DNA of 64,000 nucleotides from Escherichia coli (GCF_030013595.1 NZ_CP122768.1); one strand, 5' to 3'. Shown: positions 41,138-45,299, counted from the first letter of the stretch. Notes: generated by a model not told the origin, from the sequence alone. Numbers and translations are program-made.

Positions 41138-41558
41138 GCTTCGCCCGGCCACGCAGTACGATACCGACGCAGTTTACGCGCTGATTTGTGAGCTAAAACA
41201 GGCGGAGTTTGACCACCATGCGTTTCGCGTGGGGTTTAACGCCAATCTGCGCGATCCGAACATGCGCTACCATCTGGCGCTGCTGGATGGCGAAGTTGTC
41301 GGCATGATCGGCCTGCATTTGCAGTTTCATCTGCATCATGTCAACTGGATCGGCGAAATTCAGGAACTGGTGGTGATGCCGCAGGCGCGCGGTCTGAACG
41401 TCGGCAGCAAATTACTGGCATGGGCAGAAGAAGAAGCCCGCCAGGCCGGGGCCGAAATGACCGAGCTTTCCACCAACGTGAAGCGCCACGACGCGCACCG
41501 TTTTTACCTGCGTGAAGGCTACGAGCAGAGCCACTTCCGCTTCACCAAGGCGCTGTAA
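41124..41558 (+). CDS. phnO: Aminoalkylphosphonate N-acetyltransferase PhnO (GNAT)
   Basis: ORF track 144 aa; overlaps the phnN 3' end. Confidence 0.92.
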
Positions 41559-41559
41559 C

Positions 41560-42318
41560 ATGAGCCTGACCCTCACACTTACTGGCACTGGCGGCGCACA
41601 GGGCGTTCCCGCATGGGGCTGTGAGTGCGTGGCCTGCGTCAGAGCGCGGCGCTCACCGCAGTATCGCCGCCAGCCATGCAGCGGCGTCGTGAAGTTTAAC
41701 GACGCGATCACCCTGATCGACGCCGGGCTGCACGATCTCGCCGATCGCTGGTCGCCCGGATCGTTCCAGCAGTTTTTGCTGACGCACTACCATATGGATC
41801 ACGTGCAGGGGCTGTTTCCGCTGCGCTGGGGCGTGGGCGATTCGATCCCGATCTACGGCCCGCCGGATGAACAGGGCTGCGACGATCTGTTTAAACATCC
41901 GGGCCAGCTTGATTTCAGCCACACGATGGAACCGTTTGTGGTGTTTGATTTACAGGGGTTACAGGTCACGCCCCTGCCGCTCAACCACTCAAAACTGACC
42001 TTCGGTTATCTGCTGGAAACGGCACATAGCCGGGTGGCGTGGCTGTCTGACACCGCAGGCCTACCGGAAAAAACGCTGAAATTTTTACGCAATAATCAAC
42101 CGCAGGTGATGGTGATTGATTGCAGCCACCCACCGCGCGAGGATGCACCGCGTAATCACTGTGATTTAAATACCGTGCTTGCGCTGAATGAAGTTATCCG
42201 CTCGCCGCGCGTGGTTCTGACCCATATCAGCCATCAGTTTGATGCGTGGCTGATGGAGAACTTACTGCCGTCAGGGTTTGAGGCGGGGTTTGATGGGATG
42301 GAGATTGGGGTGGCGTGA
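41560..42318 (+). CDS. phnP: PhnP, metallo-beta-lactamase-fold cyclic phosphodiesterase
   Basis: ORF track 41512..42318; the ATG at 41560 ([20 protein letters not shown]) gives 252 aa; HxHxDH motif (THYHMDH). Confidence 0.92.
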
Positions 42319-42345
42319 GGGAAAATACCCGCGCCGGCCCCTATA

Positions 42346-42675
42346 TCAACGCCCATACTCATCTTCCATTCTCCGCTCTTCATCCTCCAGTTGCCGACGC
42401 TCCTGATCAAGCTGGCGCTGGCGATCGTCCAGCTGCCTGCGGCGATCTTCAAACTGACGGCGGCGGTCGTCATATTGTCTGCGCCGATCGTCGCTCACTT
42501 CACGCTGCCAGCCGTCGTCGTGCGAATCTTCATAGTCTCGCCCACGGTCAGGGTTATAAGCATCGTTAATCGCCTGCTGAATATTGCCAATGGTGTCGTC
42601 GATAATATCGGCCTGGGCCGGAACGGTAGACAGCGTGAGCAGGGTGAATAAAAGAAATAGCGGAAAGCGTTTCAT
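42346..42675 (-). CDS. yjdP: Small secreted protein with tandem charged DDRRRQ-type repeats
   Basis: ORF track 109 aa, ATG start; signal peptide MKRFPLFLLFTLLTLSTVPAQA, then about six 8-residue acidic/basic repeats (DDRRRQYD, DRRRQFED, ...). Confidence 0.85.
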   Translation of the reverse strand: MKRFPLFLLFTLLTLSTVPAQADIIDDTIGNIQQAINDAYNPDRGRDYEDSHDDGWQREVSDDRRRQYDDRRRQFEDRRRQLDDRQRQLDQERRQLEDEERRMEDEYGR

Positions 42676-42743
42676 TAGCCAACCTCAAAAAGAAACTCTA
42701 TCCACATTAGTCATTACTCATCCATGCAAGTAGTGGACGAATC

Positions 42744-43061
42744 TCAATTTCTCCGCTGCTCTATTGCCGTAATCGCCTCCACGCGTTGTTGATGACGACC
42801 GCCTTCGTACTGCGCGCCCAGCCACGCATCCACAATCATTTTTGCCAGTTCGAGGCCAACCACTCGTGAACCAAAAGCCAGTGCAACTTCACTGGCGTAA
42901 TGCGGATAATCAGTGCGCTCTGACGGCCTGGTTTCTTTATCAATCCCCTCACTCATTGACCATGAATAAAAGGCTGGCACAGCAACGCGGAATCCTGCGG
43001 TGCCAGCGACATGACCGCCCATTGCTCCGGTACGTTTTTTAATAAAAAACACCGGTTGCAT
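42744..43061 (-). pseudogene. rpiB: rpiB-like remnant (ribose-5-phosphate isomerase B family), shortened and rearranged
   Basis: ORF track 105 aa; segments SERTDYPHYAS-VALA and FGSRVVGLELAKMIVDAWLGAQYEGGRHQQRVEAITAIEQRRN match recalled E. coli RpiB (149 aa) but are joined with about 50 residues missing, and the N-terminal 38 residues do not align. Only about 250 bp separate it from the yjcS start. Confidence 0.5.
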
Positions 43062-43313
43062 TGATTAATTGTGCTCAGTATTTGCCGAAGTACAATATAT
43101 ATAATAAATATATAAAACACCTCATATTATTTACAGAAATAATGAATTCGCGTAATTTTCCCTCTTCAGCACAAATGCCTAATAAAATGGCGCGTTCAGC
43201 TCACACTTCTACTTATTAAAGTCGCAATTTCCCAATTATGATAACGCCAGCTTCAAATGACGTATTTTGCATGGGTTACATATTTACGACATAAATGATA
43301 AATGGAGATTTAT

Positions 43314-45299
43314 ATGAATAACTCTCGGTTATTCCGTTTGAGCAGGATTGTTATTGCGTTAACTGCCGCCAGCAGCATGATGGTAAATACCGCTAATGCG
43401 AAAGAGGAAGCGAAAGCCGCCACTCAATATACCCAACAGGTTAATCAGAATTACGCCAAATCATTACCGTTTAGCGATCGTCAGGATTTTGACGATGCCC
43501 AGCGTGGATTTATCGCCCCGCTGCTGGATGAAGGTATTCTGCGTGATGCTAACGGCAAAGTTTACTACCGCGCAGACGATTACAAATTTGATATTAATGC
43601 CGCTGCGCCGGAAACCGTAAACCCCAGCCTGTGGCGTCAGTCGCAAATCAACGGTATTTCTGGCCTGTTCAAAGTCACCGATAAAATGTATCAGGTGCGC
43701 GGCCAGGATATCTCTAACATTACGTTCGTTGAGGGCGAGAAAGGCATTATTGTTATCGACCCGCTGGTGACGCCGCCTGCCGCAAAAGCCGCACTTGATC
43801 TTTACTTCCAGCATCGTCCGCAAAAACCGATTGTTGCTGTTATTTACACCCACAGCCACGCCGACCATTATGGCGGTGTGAAAGGCATTATCTCTGAAGC
43901 GGATGTTAAATCCGGCAAAGTGCAGGTGATCGCTCCGGCAGGCTTTATGGACGAAGCCATCAGCGAAAACGTGCTGGCGGGTAACATCATGAGCCGCCGT
44001 GCGCTCTACTCTTACGGTCTGTTACTGCCGCACAACGCGCAAGGCAACGTGGGCAACGGCCTGGGCGTGACGCTGGCAACCGGCGACCCGAGCATTATTG
44101 CACCGACTAAAACTATCGTCAGAACTGGCGAGAAGATGATTATCGACGGCCTGGAATTTGACTTCCTGATGACTCCGGGTAGCGAAGCGCCAGCCGAAAT
44201 GCACTTCTATATTCCGGCCCTGAAAGCCCTGTGTACCGCCGAGAACGCCACGCATACCCTGCACAACTTCTACACTCTGCGCGGCGCGAAAACCCGCGAT
44301 ACCAGCAAGTGGACCGAGTACCTGAACGAAACGCTGGATATGTGGGGTAACGACGCGGAAGTACTGTTTATGCCGCACACCTGGCCGGTCTGGGGCAATA
44401 AGCATATCAATGATTATATTGGTAAATATCGCGATACCATCAAGTACATTCACGACCAGACCCTGCACCTGGCGAACCAGGGCTACACCATGAATGAAAT
44501 CGGCGACATGATTAAGCTGCCGCCTGCGCTTGCCAATAACTGGGCCAGCCGCGGCTATTACGGTTCTGTCAGCCACAACGCCCGCGCGGTGTATAACTTC
44601 TATCTTGGCTATTACGACGGTAACCCGGCTAACCTGCATCCGTATGGTCAGGTGGAGATGGGTAAACGTTACGTGCAGGCGCTGGGCGGTTCTGCCCGTG
44701 TCATCAACCTGGCGCAAGAAGCGAACAAGCAAGGTGATTACCGCTGGTCGGCAGAACTGCTGAAACAGGTGATTGCCGCCAACCCTGGTGACCAGGTCGC
44801 GAAGAATCTGCAAGCGAATAACTTTGAACAGCTGGGCTATCAGGCCGAGTCCGCCACCTGGCGCGGTTTCTACCTGACCGGCGCGAAAGAGCTGCGCGAA
44901 GGGGTACATAAGTTCAGCCACAGCTCCACCGGTTCCCCGGACACCCTTCGCGGGATGTCGGTCGAAATGCTATTCGACTTTATGGCCGTTCGCCTCGATA
45001 GCGCGAAAGCCGCAGGTAAGAATATCAGCCTGAACTTCAATATGAGCAACGGCGATAACCTCAACCTGACGCTGAACGATAGCGTGCTTAACTACCGTAA
45101 AACGCTGCAACCTGAAGCCAACGCCTCTTTCTACATCAGCCGTGAAGATCTTCACGCCGTGCTGACCGGACAAGCCAAAATGGCGGATCTGGTAAAAGCG
45201 AAGAAAGCCAAAATTATTGGCAATGGCGCGAAACTGGAAGAAATTATTGCCTGTCTGGATAATTTCGATTTGTGGGTGAATATCGTAACCCCAAATTAA
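43314..45299 (+). CDS. yjcS: Secreted metallo-beta-lactamase-fold alkyl/aryl sulfatase-like protein
   Basis: ORF track 43302..45299; the ATG at 43314 (MNNSRLFRL) has GGAG 6 bp upstream; signal peptide; HxHxDH motif ([10 protein letters not shown]); about 661 aa. Confidence 0.9.

Follow-up and report, generated by a model that had tools for sequence, protein, structure and literature searches.

A published setting for the gene described here is the response of Escherichia coli K-12 to a LolCDE inhibitor, in which the Rcs regulon dominates and in which RpoS, Cpx and sigma-E genes also take part (PMC5105897). In these experiments yjdP was induced 9.5- and 10.6-fold, together with osmB, bdm, wca, rcsA, ivy, mliC and yjbEFGH, and the co-induced genes include spy and cpxP (PMC5105897). 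The published RcsB box reads TN(G/A)GAN4TC(T/C)NA, and the rprA site that was crystallised with RcsB, cctATTGAGAcgaaTCTGAtcg / ccTATTGAGAcgaaTCTGAtcg, lies at -53 to -33 (PMC7913699). Imipenem raised the read count of yjdP from 478 to 672 (1.4-fold), and the upstream rpiB went from 96 to 61 reads (PMC6286996 Table S2). A CsiR ChIP peak and a 0.28-fold repression upon CsiR induction are also listed for yjdP. Published RNA-seq data thus show transcription and regulation of the gene, and lack of expression, which an initial annotation of this DNA had named as a reason to give up its reading, is not borne out. The searchable literature mentioning yjdP holds no paper on the gene itself and none containing 'DDRRRQL', in agreement with the initial statement that the product has no established function.

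On the protein side, YjdP invites comparison with leucine zippers and other two-stranded coiled coils (GCN4, Fos), with single alpha-helix (SAH, ER/K) domains and with the small helical envelope proteins Spy, CpxP and Lpp. We describe here yjdP in a stretch of 64,000 nucleotides from an E. coli genome (NZ_CP122768.1), called the window throughout. What is new is a candidate RcsB-type promoter site, strictly conserved at a fixed position in about 20 genera. Its use lies in giving context to a core gene, which this conserved site and the published stress induction would place in the Rcs response.

The yjdP gene, its surroundings and its distribution

The open reading frame (Table 1) is the catalogued E. 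coli gene yjdP, and nothing of substance sets it apart from the K-12 gene. Its translation is identical to the sequence quoted initially. It belongs to the NCBIfam family NF041443, "DDRRRQL repeat protein YjdP" (DDRRRQL_YjdP, an equivalog), with 148.2 bits (E=7.2e-44, curated cutoff 90) and protein residues 1-103 aligned to profile positions 1-101 of 101. RefSeq annotates yjdP between phnP and a truncated rpiB in E. coli chromosomes that are 99.9% identical over the 1.9-kb neighbourhood, and both lines of evidence uphold the name that had been assigned. A Pfam-A scan gave no PF28054 row for the window protein; precomputed PF28054 (YjdP) is present in all 120 homologues listed, among them ones 98-99% identical to the window YjdP, and the contig tables carry PF28054:YjdP. 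Of 5426 complete E. coli genomes, 5404 carry it. Compared to K-12 YjdP (b4487), the window protein is of equal length and has one substitution, H52 in place of R52. Both the gene and its heptad repeat are already known, the "DDRRRQL" repeat being the basis of the official NCBI name, and since they stand in the reference annotation, their discovery itself adds nothing new.

Table 1. Features of the yjdP locus, with positions counted from the first nucleotide of the window.
Feature	Position	Strand	Remarks and basis
yjdP coding sequence	42346-42675	minus	ATG start, 109 codons and TGA (42346-42348); ORF list, NF041443, annotation
Heptad-repeat tract, residues 62-109	42349-42492	minus	Tandem Repeats Finder, autocorrelation, AlphaFold, orthologue alignment
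Acidic low-confidence linker, residues 42-61, PDRGRDYEDSHDDGWQREVS	42493-42552	minus	AlphaFold, charge count, alignment
N-terminal amphipathic helix of the mature protein (predicted), residues 23-41, DIIDDTIGNIQQAINDAYN	42553-42609	minus	alignment, predicted helix
Signal peptide (predicted), residues 1-22, MKRFPLFLLFTLLTLSTVPAQA, then D	42610-42675	minus	sequence inspection, homologue alignment
Shine-Dalgarno sequence GAGG	42683-42686	minus	7 nt upstream of the yjdP ATG; read from the sequence
Predicted -10 hexamer TAATGT (TAnnnT)	42704-42709	minus	fixed 23 nt from the box in 75 upstream sequences
RcsB-box-like site TGAGATTCGTCCAC, family consensus ATTTGAGATTCCTCCGCTAC	42733-42746	minus	centre at about -42.5 from the predicted start
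Truncated rpiB remnant, 105 aa	42744-43061	minus	upstream, co-directional, outside the yjdP unit; BLASTP against K-12 RpiB

K-12 yjdP occupies the same place between rpiB and phnP and has the same promoter block. The window strain differs from K-12 by the absence of the als operon and by a yjdP-phnP spacer of 27 nt against about 146 nt. In BLASTP against K-12 RpiB, the C-terminal 43 aa of the rpiB remnant are identical, a 53-aa internal deletion follows from the alignment and the N-terminus is unrelated. The rearranged rpiB locus beside yjdP had therefore been recognised correctly: rpiB is truncated and the als operon is gone. Throughout the family, yjdP and the end of the phn operon (phnP) are convergent, or else, in genomes with a reduced phn, yjdM is nearby. 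As upstream neighbour E. coli has rpiB, Citrobacter, Entomohabitans and EHEC-type strains have a hybrid histidine kinase, Buttiauxella has an SSF transporter, and other relatives have a nitroreductase or other genes (for example one for a 771-aa protein); yjcS-yjdP is also the insertion site of island OI167 (PMC10128022). yjdP is a stand-alone, single-gene locus. Since the upstream neighbour varies between genera and phnP is convergent, no functional partner can be deduced from the neighbourhood. An Rfam scan of 41500-44000 returned nothing but a chance match (Mcr7, 15.5 bits against a threshold of 380). Folding of the 27-nt yjdP-phnP spacer was not significant on either strand (z about -1.8 on both), and a terminator scan around yjdP gave no convincing candidate.

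An exhaustive profile search over 1.84 billion representatives gave 58 matches, 33 of them below 1e-10 and many of them fragments. The weak and distant ones (P0154-P0176) are unrelated, generic coiled-coil or repeat proteins and were set aside. Members already named, together with one scanned genome for each species, yielded at least 80 loci, of which 75 full-length orthologues were analysed. These loci come from about 20 genera, and all of those listed are Enterobacteriaceae: Escherichia, Citrobacter, Enterobacter, Klebsiella oxytoca, Raoultella, Kosakonia, Kluyvera, Leclercia, Lelliottia, Buttiauxella, Cedecea, Yokenella, Pluralibacter, Pseudocitrobacter, Phytobacter, Trabulsiella, Atlantibacter and Entomohabitans, with Cronobacter from a separate listing. 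No yjdP of Salmonella or K. pneumoniae is among the loci listed. The phylogenetic distribution that had been proposed as a check thus gives, for these loci, a family of Enterobacteriaceae.

The substitution pattern shows that yjdP truly encodes a protein and that purifying selection on it is strong. Synonymous sites are saturated against equal-length orthologues from Citrobacter and Trabulsiella (pS 0.68-0.91), with pN of 0.10-0.18 over the whole gene and of only 0.03-0.055 in the repeats; dN/dS is 0.05-0.24. The least constrained part is the signal peptide (dN/dS 0.3-0.5), as expected for such a peptide. Some orthologues have a Cys within it.

A charged heptad-repeat helix in the predicted YjdP protein

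The N-terminus of YjdP has the motifs of a Sec/SPase I signal, namely K2/R3, the hydrophobic core FPLFLLFTLLTLSTV and AQA followed by D, and AxA followed by D or N is present in 71 of 75 orthologues. The signal peptide claimed initially is well founded at this level, and by motif inspection YjdP would be a Sec-exported periplasmic protein. The window protein has neither a lipobox nor a Cys, and no Cys occurs after residue 25 in any of 80 orthologues, which argues against a lipoprotein processed by SPase II. The mature protein of 87 aa contains 28 D/E and 19 R/K (54% charged residues, pI 4.6, net charge -9, GRAVY -2.27), so that the description as highly charged holds. Its first segment, a predicted amphipathic helix with hydrophobic residues at 3-4 spacing, contains the most invariant protein block of the family (D23 I24 I25 D26 I29 G30 N31 I32 Q33 Q34 A35 I36 D38 A39 Y40); pLDDT is about 40 here in the mature construct, from which the signal peptide had been removed. 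A linker with a net charge of -4 comes next; AlphaFold assigns no secondary structure to residues 41-54, at pLDDT 51-59. Between genera the linker varies in length and sequence, remaining D/N-rich with one aromatic residue kept. Beyond it, AlphaFold predicts one continuous helix over residues 55-108 (about 54 residues) with pLDDT 83-96, and above 90 over the repeats, in line with the helical structure that had been suggested.

The repeats had been described as about six consecutive units of eight residues. Tandem repetition is real and the copy number was right, as there are six full units; the period is seven residues, or 21 nt. In the window protein the heptads read DDRRRQY DDRRRQF EDRRRQL DDRQRQL DQERRQL EDEERRM, followed by a partial EDEYGR tail. 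Within residues 62-108, self-identity is 0.625 at lag 7 (z=7.8, reached by 0 of 2000 shuffles), 0.515 at lag 14 and 0.50 at lag 21, against only 0.31 (z=2.25) at lag 8. Tandem Repeats Finder reports a 21-nt unit in 3.5 copies with 75% matches at 42420-42492. Blocks of eight residues therefore shift one residue out of register per block. The periodicity as such, on whose failure in alignment the initial reading was to be abandoned, is strongly supported.

With the hydrophobic residue set at position d, the 75 orthologues show a strict pattern. Position a is R (53%), Q (22%) or E (14%), b is R in 93%, c is Q (73%) or R (26%), and d is L (74%), Y (16%) or otherwise F, M or I, that is, hydrophobic in about 100% of heptads. 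Acidic residues occupy e (D/E 86%) and f (D/E 78%), and g is R (55%) or D/E (38%). The mean net charge per heptad over the orthologues runs +0.5, +1.0, +1.1, 0, 0, -1.7; the conserved gradient from basic to acidic reads +1, +1, +1, 0, 0, -2. The number of in-phase heptads, proposed as a further check, is six in 72 of the 75 full-length orthologues, five in one and seven in two, and allelic variants with five or eight exist. The fixed number of heptads, the Arg ladder at position b and the graded charge point to a surface for specific binding and away from filler sequence.

YjdP shares with leucine zippers a long helix without interruption, in which Leu or an aromatic residue recurs every seven residues through six heptads, position e is acidic and position g is mostly basic. 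It differs in position a, which is Arg, Gln or Glu, so that half of the canonical core is absent; there is no homology, and leucine zippers are nuclear whereas YjdP is predicted to be periplasmic. A canonical coiled coil or leucine zipper, with hydrophobic residues at both a and d, can be rejected on this pattern, and the missing position-a core argues against YjdP as a classical coiled coil. The core pattern resembles that of Fos, which is not known to homodimerise. The family profile found tropomyosin as its best PDB sequence match (E=0.026, not significant), and sub-threshold coiled-coil-like Pfam matches (DUF7900 with E=0.029, and others) were rejected as compositional. Foldseek against the PDB found no match with either the monomer or the tethered dimer model.

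With SAH domains YjdP shares a seven-residue charge periodicity and a dense ladder of i,i+3 and i,i+4 ion pairs. There are 37 attractive pairs in the helix compared to 21.3+/-3.5 in shuffles, and only 4 repulsive pairs compared to 20.0+/-3.4; the Fourier peak of the charge pattern lies at a period of 7-7.5 residues with an amplitude of 0.37-0.40. These features are what would be expected if YjdP were a monomeric charged single alpha-helix that serves as a stiff periplasmic spacer or tether and does not zip to itself, a reading that we find tenable and somewhat doubtful. In its favour, R and D/E alternate round the helical wheel, Arg at g and a flanks the single Leu, the monomer alone is modelled with confidence, and alleles range from 5 to 8 heptads. 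Against it stands the hydrophobic residue that recurs every seven positions in about 100% of heptads, a seam that SAH domains normally lack, and the helix is Asp-rich, not Glu-rich, which is atypical of stable single alpha-helices. YjdP also differs from SAH domains in having Arg only (no Lys) and in its predicted secretion. Six heptads in 72 of 75 species and the very low pN of the repeats exceed what a generic spacer needs, and a tethered two-copy model packs two helices antiparallel, the tether being an artificial one of 30 residues that favours hairpins. Thus, the predicted helix is only partly SAH-like: it has the ion pairs and it also has the hydrophobic seam that such domains lack. It combines an SAH-like salt-bridge ladder with the Leu seam of a leucine zipper, without a hydrophobic position a.

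Spy, CpxP and Lpp are, like YjdP, small, helical and charged, and the export predicted for YjdP is a further likeness; spy and cpxP are moreover induced together with yjdP in the same envelope-stress experiment. A chaperone of the LTxxQ (CpxP/Spy) type was rejected, with no Pfam LTXXQ match up to E=10. Mature Lpp has 58 residues, close to the length of the YjdP helix. Lacking a lipobox and Cys, YjdP has no lipid anchor, and it lacks the 3-4 hydrophobic core of Lpp.

The promoter region and a candidate RcsB site

When the upstream regions of eight divergent loci are aligned, two islands of identity stand out from otherwise unalignable DNA. The first contains TTGAGA-N4-TCC, located about 72 nt upstream of the ATG in all 80 loci. 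A script search for TNRGA-N4-TCY at 71-75 nt upstream of the ATG recovered it in 79 of 80; the locus without a scored box (L093) and another with its box scored at -58 (L069) have miscalled start codons, and the box is present in each. A 19-bp block, A(T/A)TTGAGA(T/A)TCCTCCGCTAC, shows little or no variation among 75 distinct upstream sequences from about 20 genera. Some 15 nt with almost no information follow, and the flanks are randomised. Further downstream, the second island reads TT..tTAncgT, with T-A...T kept in 69-71 of the 75 sequences, and CCAG follows another 7 nt on. The TAnnnT element fits a -10 hexamer, and transcription is predicted to start at about 42697, some 22 nt upstream of the ATG, where the conserved CCAG is located. 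The putative promoter has a poor -35 and would depend on an activator site centred near -42.5. No yjdP promoter came up in a generic sigma-70 scan, in keeping with a weak -35.

Whichever gene is the upstream neighbour in a given genus, the box is present and keeps its distance to the ATG. An O145 strain illustrates this: it has unrelated DNA upstream of the box, which is again located at -71. In the window the rpiB remnant has as its stop codon the TGA contained in the box, and this TGA is the rpiB stop in E. coli as well.

The block fits eight of the nine specified positions of the published RcsB box; the last one, A, is C in 73 of the 75 sequences. The RcsB consensus is weak, with about two full matches expected by chance per 64 kb. 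The strict form has 0 matches within the 64-kb window, and the relaxed pattern has a single one, at yjdP. The likeness to the rprA box of Salmonella and E. coli is closer. ATTGAGA-N4-TC(T/C) is common to both, with the same left half and spacing, and both boxes lie at about -49 to -36 and overlap a weak -35, the start in the case of yjdP being predicted. The right halves differ, with TCCGC in the yjdP family (TCCAC in the window) against TCTGA in rprA. A similar sequence, TAAGATTAGTCC, is found in the bdm-osmC intergenic region, between two Rcs-induced genes. RcsB boxes are placed just upstream of the -35 or overlap it, and relative to the predicted start the yjdP box has such a place, 23 nt upstream of TAnnnT. 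Going by sequence and position of the site, the Rcs envelope-stress regulon would include yjdP as a direct target, and a conserved RcsB-type site fits the published induction of about 10-fold by the LolCDE inhibitor. We hold direct activation of yjdP by RcsB through this candidate box to be quite likely.

Induction under envelope stress could also run via RpoS or another regulator, with the upstream block binding a factor other than RcsB. Many RpoS genes (osmY, katE, otsBA, poxB) are indeed in the LolCDE-inhibitor set, CsiR is listed with both a ChIP peak at yjdP and repression of the gene, and the final A of the RcsB consensus is missing, so that the strict form is unmatched in the window. 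We nevertheless consider this improbable: the block occupies the place of a class II activator in lieu of a recognisable -35, it has ATTGAGA-N4-TC in common with the RcsB-complexed rprA site at the same promoter position, and the family is found, among the loci listed, only in Enterobacteriaceae, which possess Rcs. To our knowledge, the yjdP block is also unlike the consensus sites of sigma-E, sigma-32, CpxR or PhoB.

A proposed role in the envelope

Taken as a whole, we regard it as probable that yjdP encodes a protein with a Sec signal and a six-heptad helix that acts as an Rcs-induced periplasmic rod. Damage to the outer membrane, to lipoprotein sorting or to peptidoglycan would activate Rcs, and RcsB bound at the predicted box near -42.5 would switch on a promoter that has a poor -35. 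The mature product may then be a non-enzymatic rod of fixed length, about 8 nm, in the periplasm. Interleaved Arg and Asp/Glu would stiffen the helix by i,i+3/i,i+4 salt-bridge ladders, and one Leu or aromatic residue per heptad would form a thin hydrophobic seam along it. The gradient from basic to acidic could allow antiparallel self-pairing or docking on a partner, and the conserved N-terminal helix would probably offer a second contact surface. A more specific version takes YjdP as a periplasmic effector encoded by a core gene and activated directly by RcsB; its fixed six-heptad helix of about 8 nm, similar to Lpp in length, would be a secreted, charged single helix or half-zipper that docks on an envelope partner or pairs antiparallel with itself by means of the charge gradient. 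We consider this version rather unlikely. The partner might be a sensor domain or another coiled coil, Lpp being one example. If true, it would be the first described periplasmic protein of such structure, with a part in protection from envelope damage or in its signalling.

The structured rod has to be weighed against an intrinsically disordered polyampholyte, a hydrophilin- or LEA-like protectant or ion buffer in which composition, and not structure, matters. Its high hydrophilicity, with more than half of the mature residues charged, the co-induction of yjdP with osmotic and desiccation-related genes and the lack of both a Foldseek PDB fold match and a significant sequence match would suit such a protein. 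Garay-Arroyo et al. reportedly set the hydrophilin criterion in 2000 as Gly above 6% together with high hydrophilicity. Mature YjdP has 4 Gly in 87 residues, or 4.6%, at a GRAVY of -2.27, and a hydrophilin/LEA-like assignment was rejected on this ground. Conservation is moreover extreme position by position (b as R in 93%, d hydrophobic in about 100%, pN as low as given above), the helix is predicted with pLDDT above 90, and the register is held across six heptads in 72 of 75 species. Constraint on single residues and a fixed number of heptads speak against a disordered protectant defined by its composition alone, and we find this reading quite improbable next to the structured rod.

Length variants of the repeat do occur in frame. 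E. coli alleles of 102 aa have one heptad fewer and arose by at least two different deletions (P0039/P0030 and P0026), and P0039 is present on at least 1000 contigs; the O145:H28 protein has 109 aa and is not of this kind. An E. albertii allele of 123 aa has two additional heptads. That the 21-nt repeats form a slippage-prone contingency tract for adaptive length variation, as these alleles might suggest, is nonetheless very improbable, because the tract has no frame-shifting, homopolymer or short-unit stretches and exactly six heptads are kept in 72 of 75 species. The DNA units are only 75% alike and use different Arg codons, which indicates that the repeats are old and held by selection at the protein level, with no slippage hot spot.

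A truncated rpiB and the missing allose operon

Upstream of yjdP lies a truncated rpiB gene. Compared with K-12 RpiB, its last 43 residues at the C-terminus are identical, an internal deletion removes 53 residues, and the N-terminus is unrelated. None of the alsRBACEK allose operon is found at the rpiB-yjcS locus in the window, and because the entire operon is absent, yjcS adjoins the rpiB remnant. Of 5410 complete E. coli genomes, 1570 share the 1.9-kb arrangement around the remnant. The yjcS-yjdP interval has been described as the insertion site of an island, OI167 in EHEC (PMC10128022). In several genera and in EHEC-type E. coli, at the yjdP loci of Citrobacter (L007/L008), Entomohabitans (L005) and E. 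coli O145:H28 (L013), yjdP is directly preceded by a co-directional gene for a hybrid sensor histidine kinase/response regulator. This gene is probably the LmvK-type kinase of OI167.

Features at the yjdP locus
Feature	Position	Strand	Basis
ORF overlapping yjdP	42234-42473	-	
ORFs overlapping yjdP	42315-42651	+	
Convergent yjdP-phnP spacer, 27 nt	42319-42345		
TGA stop of rpiB remnant	42744-42746	-	
rpiB remnant, 105 aa	42744-43061	-	comparison with K-12 RpiB
yjcS	43302-45299	+	

Regulatory input to yjdP

The predicted activator site of yjdP, a conserved RcsB-like box, overlaps the 3' end of the preceding gene, the rpiB remnant, whose TGA stop codon forms part of the first half-site core (TGAGA). 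CsiR is a possible second regulatory input: ChIP-seq in E. coli K-12 lists a genic CsiR peak for yjdP, and yjdP expression was 0.28-fold upon CsiR induction (PMC5217608).

The yjdP-phnP spacer and overlapping reading frames

The spacer between the convergent yjdP and phnP genes is 27 nt in the window. Its length is about 146 nt in K-12 (L012), for which a G-quadruplex/hairpin element in the spacer is listed in one paper. The O145:H28 spacer measures about 76 nt and contains GC-rich REP-like repeats. The 27-nt spacer yielded no convincing terminator for yjdP or phnP (folding z about -1.8). Several ORFs of 79-86 aa share DNA with yjdP, either in a different frame or on the opposite strand; they are unsupported as genes and arise as by-products of a repetitive, GC-rich pattern of codons. 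In Citrobacter europaeus (L007/L008, 5487-6157), yjdP and phnP are separated by an inserted gene pair for a HigB-like toxin and an HTH antitoxin.
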